DNA of 63,921 nt, filler included. It is 7 parts of 7 records of this genome, joined end to end, with 100 filler letters (N's around TTAATTAATTAA, not from the genome) between each part and the next. Parts side by side here need not be neighbours in the genome. Positions count along the whole stretch, not along the records: positions 14,969 to 21,808 come from SRR31147125_3606; 6 more parts are not named here. One strand, written 5' to 3'. The notes beneath the pieces are model-generated. The model worked only from the letters and a program-made list of their open reading frames with translations. It ran no database searches and was not told the origin of the DNA. Both the position numbers and the translations under genes were made by a program. Below are positions 1,345 through 19,668 of the stretch, in pieces. Every line of letters begins with the position of its first letter. Position 1 is the first letter of the stretch.

Positions 1345-1782
1345 ATGAAAATTGGAATAATTATTTGCGACCGTTACAAAAGCTGTGCAGGTGGAAAATG
1401 TTTCTGTGCCATGCAAAATCGCGAAGGAGCTTTTGATATTTACGACAAGGAAATGCCGTTGGAAATTGTGGGCTACACCAGTTGTGGCGGCTGCCCTGGC
1501 GGAAACATAGAATACACGCCCGAAGAAATGATAAAAAACGGTGCCGAAGCTATTCACCTGGCAACGGGGTTGGTTGTTGGTTATCCGCCTTGCCCGCGTA
1601 TTTCGCATTTCAAAAAGTTTATCGAGGAGAAATACAAAATTCCGGTGGTAATTGGCACGCACCCAATTCCTGAAAAGTATTTAACTACCCACACTAATTT
1701 GGGAACGTGGAATGCTGAAAAGTGGAAAGAAATTATTGCGCCGACCATGGCAAATAAAGAAATAAGGCTGGCATACAATTAA
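1345..1782 (+). CDS. CGGC domain protein (predicted metal/Fe-S binding)
   Basis: MKIGIIICDRYKSCAGGKC...GYTSCGGCPG...CP...VVIGTH. Start placed at ATG 1345. Confidence 0.88.
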   Translation: MKIGIIICDRYKSCAGGKCFCAMQNREGAFDIYDKEMPLEIVGYTSCGGCPGGNIEYTPEEMIKNGAEAIHLATGLVVGYPPCPRISHFKKFIEEKYKIPVVIGTHPIPEKYLTTHTNLGTWNAEKWKEIIAPTMANKEIRLAYN

Positions 1783-1792
1783 TAAAAATAGG

Positions 1793-2731
1793 ATGTATAA
1801 ATATTTATTTGGCCCGGTTCCTTCGCGGAGGCTGGGTATGTCGCTGGGTGTTGATTTGGTGCCTAAAATAGTTTGCTCGCTCGATTGTGTGTATTGCGAA
1901 GTGGGAAAGACCACAAAACTAACACTCGAAAGGCTGGAATATATTAAGCTTGAAAAAGTAAAAGCCGAACTTCAGAATTATTTCGCGAACAATCCGGATC
2001 CTGATTTTATTACGTTTTCGGGCTCGGGCGAACCAACTTTGAATCTGTATATTGGCGAAGTCCTTCAGTTTATAAAAGAAAATAAACCCAACATTCCGGT
2101 GGCGGTTTTAACCAACGGAACTTTGTTTTATAATAAAGAAGTGACAAATGCTTTGCTGGATGCCGATGTTGTACTTCCATCGTTGGATGCTGCAACTGAT
2201 GAGGTTTTTCGGAAAATTAACCGCCCGGCGGAAGATTTACCAATGGAAAAATACCTCGATGGACTGGTGAATTTTAGCAGGCAGTTTAAAGGGAAGATTT
2301 GGCTGGAAGTATTTATTCTGCCGGGTTACAACGATTCGGAAGAAGAATTGGCTGCACTAAAAAAAGCTATCCTGAAAATAAAACCTGATTCGGTTCAGCT
2401 AAATACGCTCGACCGCCCCGGAACAGAAAAAGGACTACGTGGTGCAACCCGCGAAGAGTTAGAAGGTATCGTTGATTTTTGGGGATTAGATAATGCTGAA
2501 ATTGTTGCCGCCGCACCCGACAGGAAAAATGTTCAATCGTACCGGAGTGATGCAGAAACAGCAATTTTAGAAACTATTTTGCGCAGACCCTGCACGCTCG
2601 ATGATTTGACAAAAATTTTAGGAATGCACGTAAATGAAGTGAATAAATATTTGGATGTTTTAGAGGCCGAAAATAAAATTGAAACAGTTGAAGAGGAGAG
2701 GGGCGTTTTTTATCAAGCTAAAGAAAAGTGA
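1793..2731 (+). CDS. Radical SAM protein (COG0731/TYW1-like family) with C-terminal winged helix
   Basis: N-terminal FGPVPSRRLGMSLGVDL, CSLDCVYC (CX3CX2C), ITFSGSGEPTL, LTNGTL. Confidence 0.9.
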   Translation: MYKYLFGPVPSRRLGMSLGVDLVPKIVCSLDCVYCEVGKTTKLTLERLEYIKLEKVKAELQNYFANNPDPDFITFSGSGEPTLNLYIGEVLQFIKENKPNIPVAVLTNGTLFYNKEVTNALLDADVVLPSLDAATDEVFRKINRPAEDLPMEKYLDGLVNFSRQFKGKIWLEVFILPGYNDSEEELAALKKAILKIKPDSVQLNTLDRPGTEKGLRGATREELEGIVDFWGLDNAEIVAAAPDRKNVQSYRSDAETAILETILRRPCTLDDLTKILGMHVNEVNKYLDVLEAENKIETVEEERGVFYQAKEK

Positions 2732-2732
2732 A

Positions 2733-3260
2733 ATGAAGATTCTGATGCGTTACTTTTTATTGATAATACTAATTGTTATGAGTACACAGATTGTTAAAAG
2801 CCAAGATGAAAGTGAATTTATTTATCATCCGATCGGTCATTTTCATACCGAATATTCGCAGCAAAACAGGGCGCCCCGACAGGGAAGTTTGAAGCCCGAA
2901 CAAAAGGCTACCATCGAAATTTTGCCGGAATACCGCGAGGCTTTAAAAGATTTGGATTCGAACAAATACATTATTGTTCTTTATCATTTAAATAAATCGA
3001 AAGGCTGGGATGTTATGGTTCATCCGGGTGGCATAAAAAGCAACAAAGCTTTGGGCATGTTTGCTACCCGCACTCCACGTCGGCCAAATCCAATAGGTTT
3101 TGGAGTAATTAAGCTCGATAAAATTGAAAATGGGATTATTTACGTTTCGGGAGTTGATGCTTTCGAAGGTACACCGGTGTTGGATATTAAACCTTTTGTG
3201 CCGGAGATTGATTGTCCGGGTGGAAAAAAAGGAAAAGTGAAGAATAAATTAGGACTGTGA
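2733..3260 (+). CDS. TsaA/TrmO (YaeB)-like SAM-binding protein with apparent N-terminal signal peptide
   Basis: HPIG, APRQG, GMFATRTPRRPNPIG and GVDAFEGTPVLDIKPF motifs. ATG lies 1 nt after the radical SAM stop. Confidence 0.85.
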   Translation: MKILMRYFLLIILIVMSTQIVKSQDESEFIYHPIGHFHTEYSQQNRAPRQGSLKPEQKATIEILPEYREALKDLDSNKYIIVLYHLNKSKGWDVMVHPGGIKSNKALGMFATRTPRRPNPIGFGVIKLDKIENGIIYVSGVDAFEGTPVLDIKPFVPEIDCPGGKKGKVKNKLGL

Positions 3261-13230: not shown

Positions 13231-14217
13231 TTGTTGCGCAAGATTATATATATAAGCATTTTACTATTAATTGGATGGGGAAAATCATTTGGACAAGATC
13301 CTCAATTTTCACAGTTTTATTCCAATCCACTTTACCTTGGGCCATCATTTGCTGGCGCAATAGATGGTAGTCGTGTAACAAGTTTGTACAGGAACCAATG
13401 GCCAGGCTTACCCGTATCTTTTAGAACCATCTCATTTGGTTACGACCATTACTTCTCAAACTTTAATAGTGGGGTTGGATTATTGGTTTTGCGTGATATG
13501 GCAGGAAGCGGTGACCTTGGCGTGCTAAACTTTGGGATTCAATATTCATATAATCTTAAAGTTTTTAATACGTGGCATATTCGTCCGGGCATGCACCTAT
13601 ATTATACAGAAATGGGACTTGACTACTATAAACTTAGGTTCTATGATGATGTTTTGTCTGAAGAAACAAATACCCCAGATGTAGTAACTCCAATAGTAAA
13701 TAATAAAGCGCGCGATGTAGATTTTAGTGGTTCTATTTTAATGTATTCTGAAAGGGTATGGTTTGGAGCTACACTTGATCACATGCTAAAGCCAAATTTT
13801 TCCTGGTATGCTGATAAATATACTGTTCCTTATAAGTTAACTGCATACGGCGGGTTTTTATTGGTTAAAAACAGTAGGTTATTACGCCCCATTGACGAAA
13901 CCTTGACTTTTGCCTATCAATTTAAATATCAAAATAATCAAAAGCAACTCGACTTAGGTTTCTATTGGCATAAAATGCCACTTGTTTTAGGAATTTGGTA
14001 CAGGGGATTGCCGAAACTCAGTTACTCCAGGGGCGATGCCATAACACTTCTTGCTGGTTATAAATTAGAAAATTTCAGTGTCGGTTACAGCTACGATTTT
14101 ACTATTTCCAATATTTTACCGCAGGCATGGGGGGCACATGAATTATCTGTTGTCTTTAAATTTAACATGCCCCCTCGTAAACCAAAAAGAGGTATGGTTC
14201 CTTGTCCGGAATTTTAA
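13231..14217 (+). CDS. Type IX secretion PorP/SprF family beta-barrel protein
   Basis: GQDPQFSQFYSNPLYLGPSFAG, YRNQWP, GYSYDFTIS, GAHELS. Confidence 0.93.
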   Translation: MLRKIIYISILLLIGWGKSFGQDPQFSQFYSNPLYLGPSFAGAIDGSRVTSLYRNQWPGLPVSFRTISFGYDHYFSNFNSGVGLLVLRDMAGSGDLGVLNFGIQYSYNLKVFNTWHIRPGMHLYYTEMGLDYYKLRFYDDVLSEETNTPDVVTPIVNNKARDVDFSGSILMYSERVWFGATLDHMLKPNFSWYADKYTVPYKLTAYGGFLLVKNSRLLRPIDETLTFAYQFKYQNNQKQLDLGFYWHKMPLVLGIWYRGLPKLSYSRGDAITLLAGYKLENFSVGYSYDFTISNILPQAWGAHELSVVFKFNMPPRKPKRGMVPCPEF

Positions 14218-14993: not shown

Positions 14994-15503
14994 ATGCTAA
15001 AAAAAATTGGACTATTGATAATAATAATTATATCCATACATCTTGCAATAATTAATTTTTTCAAAATTGAATATTTGCAAGATATAGAAGAGTTGAGTGT
15101 TAAATATGATGTTAATAAGGAGCTCATACTTTCTATAATAAAAGTGGAGAGTAACTTTAAAGCAAAGATAGTGTCTTATAAAGGAGCTGTTGGTTTAATG
15201 CAGGTCATGCCTTCAACGGCAAATTGGATTTTGAAAAAAGCAGGGAAAAATCCTCAACGCTATAATTTATATAATGTTCGTGACAACTTGGAGATAGGTA
15301 TGCTATACTATGCTTATCTAAGTAGAAAGTTTGATGGAAACATAACTAAGGTTATTATTGCTTATAATGCAGGAGCCTCCAGAGTTTATGATGAATCGTG
15401 GAAAGAAATTAAAGAAACCAGGCACTATGTTTATAAGATTAAAATATCAAGATTTTTTTATAAATATCGACTATTGACTGAAAAAATAAAAAATAAATTC
15501 TAG
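14994..15503 (+). CDS. Lytic transglycosylase (SLT domain)
   Basis: IIKVESNF, GAVGLMQVMPSTA, AYNAG. Confidence 0.92.
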   Translation: MLKKIGLLIIIIISIHLAIINFFKIEYLQDIEELSVKYDVNKELILSIIKVESNFKAKIVSYKGAVGLMQVMPSTANWILKKAGKNPQRYNLYNVRDNLEIGMLYYAYLSRKFDGNITKVIIAYNAGASRVYDESWKEIKETRHYVYKIKISRFFYKYRLLTEKIKNKF

Positions 15504-15544: not shown

Positions 15545-15787
15545 GTGGGCGAAAGAATCGCAACCTTATCAATATTTATAGAGGAAAAAGAAAGTGTTTC
15601 AAAGGTGAATGATATATTGTCAGGTTTTTCTAAAATAATAATTTCACGTATGGGAATACCCTATCGTGAAAGGAAAATCTCAGTAATTGTTTTGATACTA
15701 GATGGAACAAATGAAGACATTGGAGCTCTCTCAGGGAAGATAGGAAACCTAAGGGGAGTATCTGTAAAAACAGCAATGAAAAAATAA
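15545..15787 (+). CDS. TM1266-family iron-only hydrogenase system putative regulator (ACT/NikR-C-like fold)
   Basis: RIATLSIFIE...VNDILS...IISRMGIPYRE...IGALSGKIGNLRGVSVK. AGGAGG RBS before a GTG start; sits upstream of hydG. Confidence 0.88.
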   Translation: MGERIATLSIFIEEKESVSKVNDILSGFSKIIISRMGIPYRERKISVIVLILDGTNEDIGALSGKIGNLRGVSVKTAMKK

Positions 15788-15789
15788 TA

Positions 15790-15940
15790 TAGACAGTCCT
15801 AATTACAAGGAGTTACTCTAAGTAAAAGGGAGGTTAAGTATAATCAGTGTGTTTCTTCTTTTTTTACAAAATAAAGATATTTTTTTCACACACAGATTGA
15901 ATTGAACCCTTCTAATTTACTTAGAAAGGGTTTTTTATTT
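15790..15940 (+). promoter_or_regulatory. Putative transcription attenuator (5' hairpin / antiterminator / terminator) upstream of hydG
   Basis: Terminator AACCCTTCTAA-TTTAC-TTAGAAAGGGTT-TTTTATTTT at 15905-15940. Segment 15818-15852 is complementary to 15888-15924. A 5' hairpin lies at 15790-15820. Confidence 0.65.
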
Positions 15941-15995
15941 TATATATAAAAACTCTTTCAGAAATAAGTTTAAAATTTTAAATGGAGGTTATAAA

Positions 15996-17414
15996 ATGGA
16001 AAAGTCATGGAGAGAAGAAGTGAAAAAAGAGAGTTTTATCAATGGGGAATTAATCAACAAATTATTGGATGGAACAAAAGAAGTTAGTGATGAAAGATTT
16101 GAACAAGTTATGGAAAGAGCTAAAAAACAAGAAAGACTAAGTTTAGGAGAAACAGCGTTATTATTAAACATAACTGATGAAAGTAAAATTAATAGAATTT
16201 TTAACTTAGCAAGAGATATAAAAGAGAGAGTGTATGGAAACAGAGTAGTATTATTTGCTCCACTTTATTTAGGAAATAAATGTACTAACCTTTGTACTTA
16301 TTGTGGTTTTAAAGCGACAAATGAAGATACTATTAGAAAAACACTTAATCTTGCTGAAGAGAAAAAAGAGATAGAAGCATTGGTGGACGAAGGACATAAA
16401 AGATTAATCATGGTATATGGAACTCATCCAGATTACTCAGCCGATTATATTGCTCAAACAGTTGAAAAAGCCTATTCTGTAAAAAATGGAAATGGTGAGA
16501 TTAGAAGGGTAAACATTAATGCCTGTCCTATGAATGTTGATGATTATAAAATTGTTAAGGACTCTGGAATAGGAACATATCAAATTTTCCAAGAGACATA
16601 CCATGAAGAAACATATAAAAAAGTTCATGTAGCTGGTGAAAAGTCAAACTTTAAATGGAGACTATTTGGACTAAGTAGAGCTATGGAAGCTGGAATAGAT
16701 GACGTAGGAATAGGAGCATTATTTGGACTTTATAAATGGAAATTTGAAGTAATGGGATTAATGCAACATGTTGAACACTTAGAAAAAGAGTATGGAGTAG
16801 GACCACATACAATTTCATTCCCAAGGCTAAATGAAGCAAATGGTGCAGTTAAAGATCCAGAATACATGGTTGGCGATAATGAGTTAAAAAGAATAATTGC
16901 AATTTTAAGATTAGCAGTACCTTACACGGGCTTAATTTTAACAGCAAGAGAAAATGCGGAAGTAAGAAAAGAGTGTATGGAACTAGGTGTATCTCAAATT
17001 GATGCTGGAACACAAATAGAACTTCAGGGTTACTCTAAGCACAAAAAAGATCAGGATTTAAAAAAAGAGCAATTTAAAATAGGTGATAGTAGAAGTCTTG
17101 ATGAAGTGATGAGAGAATTAATGAAAAATGGTTTTACTCCTTCATTTTGTACAGCCTGTTATAGATTAGGTAGAACGGGAGAGCACTTCATGGAGTTCTC
17201 AAAACCAGGATTTATTCATAATTTTTGTACTCCAAATGCTGTATTAACCTTAGCAGAATATTTAGAAGATTATGCAAGTGAATCTACAAAAGAGGTTGGG
17301 TATGATTTAATAGAAGGTGAGATTGAAAAAGCGGAGCTTGCAGAAAATGTTAAGAAAACTTTAGTAGAAAAATTAGATAAAATCAAAACTGGATCAAGAG
17401 ATTTATATTATTAA
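15996..17414 (+). CDS. hydG: [FeFe]-hydrogenase H-cluster radical SAM maturase HydG
   Basis: YGNRVVLFAPLY, CTNLCTYC, GPHTISFPR, C-terminal CTACY...C (CX2CX22C), GSRDLYY. Confidence 0.95.
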   Translation: MEKSWREEVKKESFINGELINKLLDGTKEVSDERFEQVMERAKKQERLSLGETALLLNITDESKINRIFNLARDIKERVYGNRVVLFAPLYLGNKCTNLCTYCGFKATNEDTIRKTLNLAEEKKEIEALVDEGHKRLIMVYGTHPDYSADYIAQTVEKAYSVKNGNGEIRRVNINACPMNVDDYKIVKDSGIGTYQIFQETYHEETYKKVHVAGEKSNFKWRLFGLSRAMEAGIDDVGIGALFGLYKWKFEVMGLMQHVEHLEKEYGVGPHTISFPRLNEANGAVKDPEYMVGDNELKRIIAILRLAVPYTGLILTARENAEVRKECMELGVSQIDAGTQIELQGYSKHKKDQDLKKEQFKIGDSRSLDEVMRELMKNGFTPSFCTACYRLGRTGEHFMEFSKPGFIHNFCTPNAVLTLAEYLEDYASESTKEVGYDLIEGEIEKAELAENVKKTLVEKLDKIKTGSRDLYY

Positions 17415-17430: not shown

Positions 17431-17658
17431 ATGAATATAGAGAGTATAAAAACTAAAATTACTGCCATTATGGGAAATCAATCAGGAAAAATATTAACTG
17501 CTAAAAAAATTGGGAAAAGAAATGAATACCTATTTTCAATTGGTGAAACTAACTATGGAACTCAGGAGATAATATTTGAGAATGAGCAGATAATAGTTTT
17601 CGGTGAAGAACTTCTTGAGTCAGTAAAATTAGAATTAATTGAAAATTTAAAAAACTAA
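17431..17658 (+). CDS. Small hypothetical protein (75 aa)
   Basis: Tightly packed between hydG and aspA with 14-16 nt gaps and a purine-rich RBS. Confidence 0.6.
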   Translation: MNIESIKTKITAIMGNQSGKILTAKKIGKRNEYLFSIGETNYGTQEIIFENEQIIVFGEELLESVKLELIENLKN

Positions 17659-17672
17659 TTATAGGAGTAGTT

Positions 17673-19004
17673 ATGGAATTTAGATTGGAGAAAGATAGTT
17701 TAGGGCAGTTAAAAATAGAAGAAACAAAATATTATGGAATCCATACTGCGAGAGCTATCGAAAATTTTCAACATAAAGGAAAATTAACTAATATTGAGCT
17801 AATAAAAGCTTTGGCAGTGGTTAAAATTGCAGCTGCGGAAGCAAATTATAAAGCAGGTAAATTAAGTAATACAAAAAAAGATATAATAACAAGTTCTGCA
17901 AATGAAATATATGCAGGTAAATATGATTTTGACTTTCCTATTACAGCCTTGCAAGGCGGTGCAGGAACCTCTGTTAATATGAATATCAATGAGGTTATTG
18001 CAAATATAGGCCTTGAAAAGTTAGGCAAAAAAGGTGAGTATGAGTTTCTTCATCCAATAGAGGATATTAACCTAAGTCAATCAACGAATGATGTTTATCC
18101 CACTGCTGCAAAGATAGCAATCATAAAAATTCTGAGAGAACTCATTAATGAAATAATGGAACTTCAAAACTCGCTTCAGGAAAAAGAACAAGAGTTTTCG
18201 AGTATATTTAAAATTGGAAGAACTCAATATCAAGATGCAGTACCAATAACTTTAGGTCAAGAGTTTTCTGCATATGCAGAGGCTGTCTCGAGAGATAGAT
18301 GGAGATTATATAAAATCGAGGAAAGAATAAGAAGGATAAATATTGGTGGAACAGCAATAGGTACAGGTGTTGGGGCGAATTTAAAGTATCGATACTATGT
18401 AAGTGAAGAGTTGAAAAGACTAACTGGTTTTGGACTTGCAAGAGCAGAAAATTTAATAGATGCCACTCAAAATTTGGACGCCTTTGTTGAAGTATCAGGA
18501 CTTCTCAAGTCACTTGCAGTTAACCTTAATAAAGTTGCAAAGGATTTACGTTTAATGTCCAGCGGACCAAATGCTGGTTTAAATGAAATAAATCTGCCAG
18601 AGCTACAGGTAGGGTCAAGTATAATGCCTGGAAAAGTTAACCCTGTTGGTGCAGAATTTATGCAGCAAATCTATTATAAGGTTATGGCTAATGATTTAAT
18701 GCTTACAATGGCTTGTGCTGATGGTGAGTTTGAGCTTAATGCAATGATTCCAGTTGTTGTTGAGGCAATACTTGAAAGTTTAGAGCTTCTTCGTGATGGA
18801 ATCAAGATATTTACATACAAGGTAATAAAGGGAATTACTGTAAATGAAGATATTTGTAAAAAATACCTTGAAAATAGTCTAACAAGAGCGACTGAACTAA
18901 TAGATAAATTAGGTTATGAAAAGTTAACGGAGATACTTAAAGAGAGTCAAAAAACAGGAAAAAGTTATATTGAGATAATTGAAGAGAAAGAGCTGTTGAA
19001 ATAA
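17673..19004 (+). CDS. aspA: Aspartate ammonia-lyase
   Basis: RLEKDSLG, QGGAGTSVNMN, SQSTND, GSSIMPGKVNP. Confidence 0.92.
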   Translation: MEFRLEKDSLGQLKIEETKYYGIHTARAIENFQHKGKLTNIELIKALAVVKIAAAEANYKAGKLSNTKKDIITSSANEIYAGKYDFDFPITALQGGAGTSVNMNINEVIANIGLEKLGKKGEYEFLHPIEDINLSQSTNDVYPTAAKIAIIKILRELINEIMELQNSLQEKEQEFSSIFKIGRTQYQDAVPITLGQEFSAYAEAVSRDRWRLYKIEERIRRINIGGTAIGTGVGANLKYRYYVSEELKRLTGFGLARAENLIDATQNLDAFVEVSGLLKSLAVNLNKVAKDLRLMSSGPNAGLNEINLPELQVGSSIMPGKVNPVGAEFMQQIYYKVMANDLMLTMACADGEFELNAMIPVVVEAILESLELLRDGIKIFTYKVIKGITVNEDICKKYLENSLTRATELIDKLGYEKLTEILKESQKTGKSYIEIIEEKELLK

Positions 19005-19209: not shown

Positions 19210-19668
19210 ATGATTAGTTTAATAGCTGCTTTAGATTCGAACAATTTAATTGGGTGCAACTCTGGTCTTCCATGGAATATTAAGGAAGATTTGCAAAATT
19301 TCAAAAAACTAACATTGAATCATACAATAGTCATGGGAAGAAAAACTTTTGAAAGTATAGGCAGACCATTACCTAAAAGAAGAAATGTTGTTTTGACTAG
19401 AAGTAAAAGCTATAAGGTCGATGGAATAGAGATTGTAAATAGTTTAGAAGAGATGTATAGAATTTTAACCGAGGAAGAAATATTTATTGTTGGTGGAAGT
19501 GAGATTTATAAAAAGACCTTACCAATTGCAGACAGACTTTACCTTTCGCATATTAAAGGAGAATTTGAAGGAGATAGATATTTTCCAAAAATTAATTATA
19601 CGATGTGGAAAGTTGTTGAGGTAAAAGAGTTTGATAAGTTCACTTTCAAAGTTTATGAGAGAGTATAA
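19210..19668 (+). CDS. folA: Dihydrofolate reductase
   Basis: LPWNIKEDLQNFK, MGRKTFESIGRPLPKRRNVVL, VGGSEIY, GDRYFP. Extended -10 TGTTATAAT upstream. Confidence 0.95.
   Translation: MISLIAALDSNNLIGCNSGLPWNIKEDLQNFKKLTLNHTIVMGRKTFESIGRPLPKRRNVVLTRSKSYKVDGIEIVNSLEEMYRILTEEEIFIVGGSEIYKKTLPIADRLYLSHIKGEFEGDRYFPKINYTMWKVVEVKEFDKFTFKVYERV

Follow-up and report, generated by a model that had tools for sequence, protein, structure and literature searches.

The 208-nucleotide (nt) gap between a TM1266-family gene and hydG, an H-cluster maturase gene, in the 63,921-nt stretch of DNA analysed here (hereafter the window; seven parts of seven records joined end to end) almost certainly holds a real, conserved, and apparently undescribed cis-regulatory RNA. 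Given this element, its role is very probably that of an attenuator of hydG of the OFF type; the TM1266 protein is, judging from sequence, the candidate binder and effector of its hairpin, a proposal for which we consider the chances to be about even. In the mechanism that we propose, the gap would be a transcription attenuator gating read-through from the TM1266 gene into hydG, a 75-amino-acid (aa) open reading frame (orf75), and aspA. The nascent RNA would first fold a 33-nt hairpin (15798–15830, + strand, as for all features of this locus). With the hairpin locked, its 3' strand could not invade the RNA downstream, an intrinsic terminator (15904–15941) would form, and hydG would not be transcribed; with the hairpin unlocked, the 3' strand would pair with the 5' arm and loop of the terminator to give an antiterminator, and RNA polymerase would read through. 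In relatives in which hydG or TM1266 has its Shine-Dalgarno sequence in this 3' strand, the closed hairpin would block translation. The locking agent would most likely be a TM1266 oligomer, each subunit reading one of two equivalent purine loops, and its action would possibly be gated by a small ligand, for which the earlier note suggested Tyr, Cys, or Fe.

The hairpin, which we call the sensor, has the form 5'-CCU-RA-NNNN-AA-GGN-loop-N'CU-RA-N'N'N'N'-AA-GGG. In the window it consists of three helices, P1 (15798–15800 with 15828–15830), P1b (15803–15806 with 15822–15825), and P2 (15809–15811 with 15817–15819), two purine 2×2 loops in which RA lies opposite AA (15801–15802 opposite 15826–15827, and 15807–15808 opposite 15820–15821), and an apical loop (15812–15816); on its own it folds at −5.1 kcal/mol. 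The two strands read alike from 5' to 3', which gives the helix a pseudo-dyad. P1 is CCU/GGG and includes a U-G pair, and P2 is GGN/N'CU, topped by an apical part that ranges from a tetraloop to ~14 extra pairs. The 4-bp P1b is freely variable (UUAC/GUAA, GUAG/CUGU, CUGU/GCGG, UUGC/GCAA, and UAGA/UCUA, as well as UGGA/UCCA, CUUG/CAAG, CGGG/CCCG, and CAGG/CCUG). Two of the three helices, P1b and P2, covary.

This structure was recovered from homologous loci. Directly after the TM1266 stop codon, 18 of 18 loci carry two blocks, yCCUAAUUACAAGG and CUrAGUAAAAGGGAG, which are the two strands of one hairpin and co-occur only at this place in the loci and the window scanned. A variable stretch follows, then in most of the 18 a U-tailed hairpin (the automatic search found none in L004 or L022), and then the hydG ribosome-binding site. 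In a MAFFT alignment of the 18 leaders, 96.9% of the cells pair, compared with 84.8% in shuffles and at most 62% in slid controls; double changes occur at five pairs, the score was reached by none of 500 shuffles, and RNAalifold predicts the identical sensor structure from the same alignment. For 46 instances aligned to the model, an alignment that was fitted to the model and whose covariation counts therefore lean toward it, 95.8% of the cells pair (73.7% when shuffled), with 99 double-change cells vs 22, a covariation score of 0.676 vs 0.226 (0/500 shuffles), and four to five pair types at each P1b pair. Seven positions (C7, U8, G19, C54, A57, A63, and G65) show no variation among all 47 instances. 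Both sequence and structure are conserved, with covariation, across 25% to 61% G+C. The attenuator claimed for this gap in the earlier note is thus borne out by a leader that is conserved and covaries in homologous loci.

The recognition element is a different one from that proposed in the note, which had pointed to a 5' hairpin joining UCCU (15797–15800) to AGGA (15808–15811) with an outer UAGA/UCUA. These strands can pair, and do so in the minimum free energy (MFE) fold of the gap, but the conserved unit is the sensor, built from the 5' half of that hairpin and the antiterminator's 5' arm. G-to-A changes within the GG step disrupt the hairpin of the note and fit pairing between the halves. 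At best, the hairpin of the note could represent another fold of the open state. The same G-to-A changes, which fit inter-half A-U pairing only, together with the covariation of P1b and P2, also ruled out two mini-hairpins or a tandem single-strand repeat. Other candidates were rejected as well. The first block resembles the CsrA consensus, but relatives do not keep its GGA; the Shine-Dalgarno-like AAGGAG is not followed by any conserved start codon or reading frame, as a leader peptide would require; and hexamer spacing is too short and too variable for a promoter inside the motif. An ANTAR target consists of two tandem hexaloop hairpins, with A1 and G4 of the loops conserved and the terminator overlapped by the second hairpin, whereas the covarying structure found here is one hairpin with internal loops.

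The remainder of the gap provides the switch. The terminator is a 12-pair stem (15904–15915 with 15921–15933) with one bulged A and a UUUAC loop, followed by UUUUUUAUUUU, its U-tract running from 15931; it is absent from the output of a simple, stricter consensus pattern scan. The antiterminator is formed in its outer part by pairing of 15817–15826 with 15916–15925 and of 15828–15833 with 15908–15913, and its inner part is a middle hairpin (15837–15903, AAUCAGUGUGU.../...ACACACAGAUU) that is common to both states and lies in the variable region, its sequence not being conserved among relatives. Antiterminator and terminator share the terminator 5' arm and are mutually exclusive. The MFE fold of the whole gap is a long helix of −40.8 kcal/mol (shuffles −32.7 ± 3.8, z −2.15, 6 of 200 shuffles being as stable). 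The transcript 15788–15940 has an MFE of −31.9 kcal/mol for the sensor, the middle hairpin, and the terminator together, and its ensemble is bistable, with antiterminator pairs at ~0.67 and terminator pairs at ~0.33. When the 5' strand of the sensor is blocked, the antiterminator results (−28.6 kcal/mol), with the switching strand, i.e., the sensor 3' strand that is also the antiterminator 5' arm (15817–15833), paired with 15908–15925. All three structures that the earlier note had described in the gap are accordingly present at or near the positions claimed, the exclusion of the antiterminator and the terminator by one another holds, and the layout is indeed like that of protein-dependent attenuators.

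The competing pairings recur in relatives. Terminators were detected automatically at the equivalent place in 27 of 47 instances; forcing the sensor let the terminator form in 25 of these 27 leaders, and freeing the 3' strand abolished it by MFE in 12 of the 25. The duplex of the 3' strand with its cognate terminator arm has a mean of −11.9 kcal/mol, compared with −8.4 for non-cognate arms, and the cognate arm is within the best five in 22 of 27 cases; the accompanying p = 5e-8 is not a true probability, because the rows are related. There is also a second expression platform. The start codon lies at most 17 nt after P1 in 8 of 47 instances, and the sensor 3' strand is therefore the ribosome-binding site there; in L134, the ribosome-binding site of TM1266 and its AUG both lie within the hairpin. 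The two platforms thus have the same predicted sign, and a closed hairpin very probably means OFF.

It might be argued that nothing here is regulatory, that the terminator simply ends the upstream transcript, that hydG has its own promoter, and that the hairpins are incidental. The z-score of the gap fold is modest, 55 nt lie between the terminator and hydG in the window, and a simple scan gave weak promoter-like matches at 15969–15997. These matches, however, end on the start codon, and the gap region has fewer promoter-like matches than its shuffles (26 vs 33 ± 6). A separate promoter between the terminator and hydG, which the earlier note had named as one outcome that would speak against it, has no room in most relatives, since only ~20–30 nt lie between the terminator and the hydG start (e.g., L001, L003, and L010). 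With the conservation and covariation of the hairpin across so wide a range of G+C contradicting it as well, we regard this explanation as highly improbable.

The distribution of the element was followed with three covariance models, R1, R2, and R3, the last being broader and structure-weighted. The window is matched at 15793–15837 (R1 52.5 bits, R2 54.2, R3 45.7), and none of the models finds a second copy in the 64-kb window. Among 45 sources, R1 matched 30 of 30 TM1266-hydG gaps, 12 of them outside the training set, and its next-best match reached 18.7 bits. A HydG search brought 25 loci; in 18 of them TM1266 is followed by a gap of 109–251 nt and then by hydG, and three Leptotrichiaceae-like loci have hydG with neither TM1266 nor the gap. 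For 80 metagenomic TM1266 genes, the model matches lie on the gene strand in 17/17, 31/31, and 43/43 cases, the last being the R3 matches in 90 sources. Most matches are less than ~150 nt from TM1266, or directly upstream of hydG where hydE intervenes. Diverged copies are visible by eye, such as the G+C-rich CUGACCGCGAAG...CCGAGCGGGAAG in L104, L107, and L117. The TM1266 proteins of L091–L093 are 81–84% identical to a protein named Sedimentibacter, and the element is therefore not confined to Fusobacteriota; outside this phylum, one element-bearing phylum of nine genomes has a match in only one. The range of the element so far comprises Fusobacteriota, Bacillota resembling Sedimentibacter, and other lineages that are uncultured.

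Some leaders are arranged differently. Two tandem copies of the element are present in the leaders of L100 (1876–1965) and L156 (1781–1992), and L115 has copies before and after TM1266 (1387–1430 and 1790–1835), each followed by a near-identical terminator. L147 has a weak match (686–732, 16.9 bits) after a promoter-like TTGACA ~800 nt upstream of TM1266; the gene after it is possibly an MTA/SAH nucleosidase gene. A longer and different leader with a promoter and a terminator was seen in L033–L035 (~200 nt upstream of TM1266), L125, and L128, that is, in Fusobacteriota and gut metagenome loci; its versions share GGGCnUGAAGA...UAUCU-rA-NNNN-UCGG, apparently a half-version of the element with one purine loop, and have no Rfam match.

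Of 47 instances, 28 precede hydG and 19 sit in the leader of TM1266 itself. The earlier note had placed the binding site just behind the regulator's own gene, and this must be amended, for the element belongs upstream of hydG or upstream of TM1266. Altogether hydG lies downstream in 40 of the 47 (28 directly and 12 via TM1266); of the remaining seven, hydE is seen in three, and the examined DNA of four contains no additional hyd gene. Such a pattern would also suit a stand-alone riboswitch, in which the hairpin would close once its purine loops had bound a small molecule or ion connected with HydG chemistry, and TM1266 would be just another regulated gene. TM1266 is indeed downstream of the element like any regulated gene in the 19 cases, and hydG in the 40; one sensor serving two platforms, terminator and ribosome-binding-site occlusion, is a riboswitch hallmark, and so are the two element copies of L100, L156, and L115. 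On the other hand, the element is very small, with 10 pairs and no tertiary-contact motif. We hold this alternative to be rather unlikely, though a serious one, and the association with TM1266 bears on it directly.

That association was examined across 190 Fusobacteriota genomes, among which HydG is present in 108 and TM1266 in 39. R3 gave 33 matches over 151 Fusobacteriota genomes. Directly 5' of hydG lie 26 of the 33, and 26 of 26 of these genomes carry TM1266; no element stands next to hydG in any TM1266-less genome of the 151, nor did two HydG-positive, TM1266-negative genomes searched singly give a match. A stand-alone riboswitch would not lead us to expect this, as most HydG-bearing Fusobacteriota lack TM1266. 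The other seven matches score at most 32.1 bits and lie elsewhere in the genome, and the three inspected (G167, G185, and G181) are within coding sequence. Matches away from hydG are all weak, and none of the four inspected, these three and one in G010, is a credible regulatory copy. A look-alike in G010, a genome without TM1266 (L079 1501–1568, − strand; R1 32.1 bits, missed by R3), reaches from the end of one gene, of the TPR type, into the start of dprA, and is probably due to chance.

Element and TM1266 also stay together in other settings. They do so in L087, L139, L141, L142, L150, and L168 though hydE intervenes, and L118 has the order hydA-[variant element]-TM1266-hydF. The TM1266 gene of a gut clade (L137, L140, and L157–L167) has upstream of it a promoter, then a variant of the element, and a terminator; P2 of this variant is changed from G-C to A-U, and P1b is CGUC/GACG vs CGCC/GGCG. 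Within this clade, the L157 group (L157–L160, L163–L165, and L167; ~1400–3246) has TM1266 followed by genes for an NMT1/SsuA-like substrate-binding protein and for a permease of the ABC type, and the 1.5 kb examined on each side is free of hyd genes; its TM1266 is full-scoring (PF21699, 111.9 bits). A riboswitch for HydG chemistry does not explain why TM1266 and a variant element occur in an ABC-transporter operon with no hyd gene nearby. The transporter context may hint at the class of the ligand. Because element and TM1266 are portable together, and because the RNA has a dyad, a symmetry that suits a homo-oligomer, we favor TM1266 as the reader of the sensor.

The TM1266 gene of the window (15545–15787) has a GTG start and encodes 80 aa that match TIGR03959 (104.1 bits vs a cut-off of 60.8) and PF21699 (104.7 vs 27). 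As in relatives, it adjoins hyd maturation genes, here hydG. Its sole domain is NikR_C/TM1266-like (residues 4–76); it has no ribbon-helix-helix DNA-binding domain in its 80 aa, in agreement with the earlier note, which had described the family as lacking a DNA-binding domain. The predicted model (predicted local distance difference test, pLDDT, 95) has a beta-alpha-beta-beta-alpha-beta fold. The closest structure is 2NZC (2nzc_A; template-modelling (TM) score 0.93, root-mean-square deviation 1.0, phmmer E = 2.2e-15), which has four chains, and the next neighbor is the NikR C-domain (TM score 0.82–0.88). The nickel ligands of the NikR C-domain are His and Cys. The window TM1266 translation contains neither residue, which excludes a NikR-type metal site. 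Thus the fold is like the C-terminal tetramerization and metal domain of NikR, and yet TM1266 lacks both a DNA-binding domain and any His or Cys, which rules out a mode of action like that of NikR. Basic residues conserved in TM1266 include R4, R35, K65, and K75.

Among 19 longer forms of TM1266, no fusion with an RNA-binding domain was found, and one carries a DNA-binding domain. This is P0140 (246 aa), with XRE-type helix-turn-helix domains, a zinc-ribbon, and a TM1266-like domain; it is one metagenomic member on one contig and could be a gene-call artefact.

Several of these results weigh against the proposed mechanism. At E ≤ 0.01, no more than 29 of the 80 metagenomic TM1266 loci give a match with R3, and the examined DNA of L109, L112, L143, L161, and L162 shows no element. 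TM1266 and the element are mostly neighbors, and their shared gain or loss may represent single events, of which few would be independent. In 13 of the 27 leaders with a detectable terminator, the terminator is kept by MFE although the sensor 5' strand is blocked, so that the antiterminator is only kinetically plausible in these 13. The structural neighbors of TM1266 are NikR and ACT domains, not RNA binders, and we know of no ACT/NikR-C fold that binds RNA. The sole domain fusion, to an XRE-type helix-turn-helix (1 of the 19 longer forms), implies a DNA-binding output. The covariation counts on the 46-instance alignment belong here too, for the reason given with them.

Alternatively, another factor might read the hairpin, e.g., an RNA-binding protein, or the hairpin might be a nuclease site or a stability element, with TM1266 acting elsewhere, for instance as a maturase accessory or sensor. 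Symmetric purine-rich internal loops are common protein sites, and a TM1266 domain that can be fused to a DNA-binding domain suggests a sensor role. The conserved competing pairings with the terminator or the ribosome-binding site nevertheless argue for a conformational switch and not a cleavage site, and the co-occurrence is specifically with TM1266. We consider another factor improbable, less likely even than the riboswitch. TM1266 as the hairpin's reader remains our preference, and in its full form we would propose, tentatively and from sequence comparison, that the TM1266 family may constitute a new class of attenuation proteins that bind RNA and have an ACT/NikR-C fold as their scaffold, whose oligomer would clamp the two purine loops of a symmetric hairpin and so switch off hydG (or, in some gut bacteria, an ABC transporter) via termination or ribosome-binding-site occlusion in response to a ligand. 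This full form we rate at slightly below an even chance.

The closest known parallel is PyrR of the Bacillus pyr operon. There, too, the regulator is encoded in the operon that it controls, an attenuator separates the regulator gene from the one after it, and binding to a 5' hairpin keeps a strand from the antiterminator, so that the terminator forms and the bound state is OFF, as predicted here. PyrR differs in having a phosphoribosyltransferase fold and another binding-loop consensus, and no match to the Rfam PyrR family (RF00515) was found here; the RNA of the present system is dyad-symmetric, and its candidate protein has an ACT/NikR-C fold and is a putative binder. HutP, at the hut terminator, and TRAP, at the trp leader, are small oligomeric ligand-activated proteins reading repeated short RNA motifs, and in hut the regulator gene is immediately upstream of the controlled terminator, as it is here. 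HutP binds single-stranded UAG repeats and its binding causes antitermination (ON), and TRAP reads 11 GAG/UAG triplets; in our case two half-sites would be part of a folded helix, with OFF as the predicted bound state. Small riboswitches (guanidine-II; NMT1/xanthine, THF-II) likewise combine a short hairpin with either platform and with tandem copies, and are unlike the element in that no Rfam sequence or model matches it and in its strict association with one small protein gene.

The Rfam comparison had been suggested in the earlier note, and no Rfam family matches the leader. At gathering score, Rfam 15, with its T-box and known riboswitch families, gave no match in nine loci, and ten further loci had nothing at the element; at E ≤ 10, the only models to overlap the region in the window are SNORD127 and ncr1575 (24.6 bits vs 60), the latter a sub-threshold match owed for the most part to the terminator hairpin. 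The excerpts of the literature on TM1266, TIGR03959, or PF21699 and on RNAs of hydG or hydrogenase contain annotation-level mentions only and describe no such RNA; "hydrogenase" in the excerpt of PMC9481103 refers to tungsten-cofactor riboswitches.

The gene under control, hydG (15996–17414; TIGR03955, 506.7 bits vs a cut-off of 312.15), is preceded by a Shine-Dalgarno GGAGG (15984–15988, read from the sequence) and followed by orf75 (17431–17658) and an aspartate ammonia-lyase-family gene (aspA, 17673–19004; PRK12273, 609.2 bits vs 510). Both are probably co-transcribed with hydG, and the synteny is kept in relatives; the nearest TM1266 and HydG relatives come from Ilyobacter, Propionigenium, and other Fusobacteriota. 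Upstream of TM1266 lies an SLT-type lytic transglycosylase gene (14994–15503), and downstream of aspA a dihydrofolate reductase gene (dfr, 19210–19668). The product of orf75 is conserved at 39–51% identity in nine related loci (including L001–L003, L007, L008, L010, L011, and L022), with no family match except a sub-threshold one to DUF3912 (18 bits vs 23.1). The aspartate ammonia-lyase-family gene and dfr travel with hydG; dfr is directly 3' of hydG in L004–L006 and further downstream in L001–L003, L007, L011, L016, and L018, a link that might, as speculation, run through one-carbon and H-protein chemistry. The association of aspA with hyd genes has been published, with aspA supplying ammonia for the dithiomethylamine ligand, in a text that does not contain the word "regulator" (PMC11736057). 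Elsewhere in the window, positions 13231–14217 (+) encode a PorP/SprF-family (type IX secretion) membrane protein (199.5 bits vs a cut-off of 90.55). To our knowledge such a protein is unexpected for Fusobacteriota, and the rest of the window is Fusobacteriota-like.

The element bears on how cells time the production of the H-cluster maturases, and on TM1266, whose structure was solved in 2006 and which has been annotated only as a "putative regulator." The element is a defined RNA of 33–45 nt with clear mutational predictions and with termination at a mapped U-tract as its read-out, and its candidate partner is small, soluble, and already crystallized, so that the question of the regulator is directly testable. 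If TM1266 binds, RNA binding would be added to the functions of ACT-like folds; failing that, the hairpin would be a new orphan riboswitch candidate, the ligand of which would reveal a signal in the assembly of [FeFe]-hydrogenase. In both cases, the covariance model defines a regulatory RNA that had no annotation, and the element may explain the function of the TM1266 protein family.

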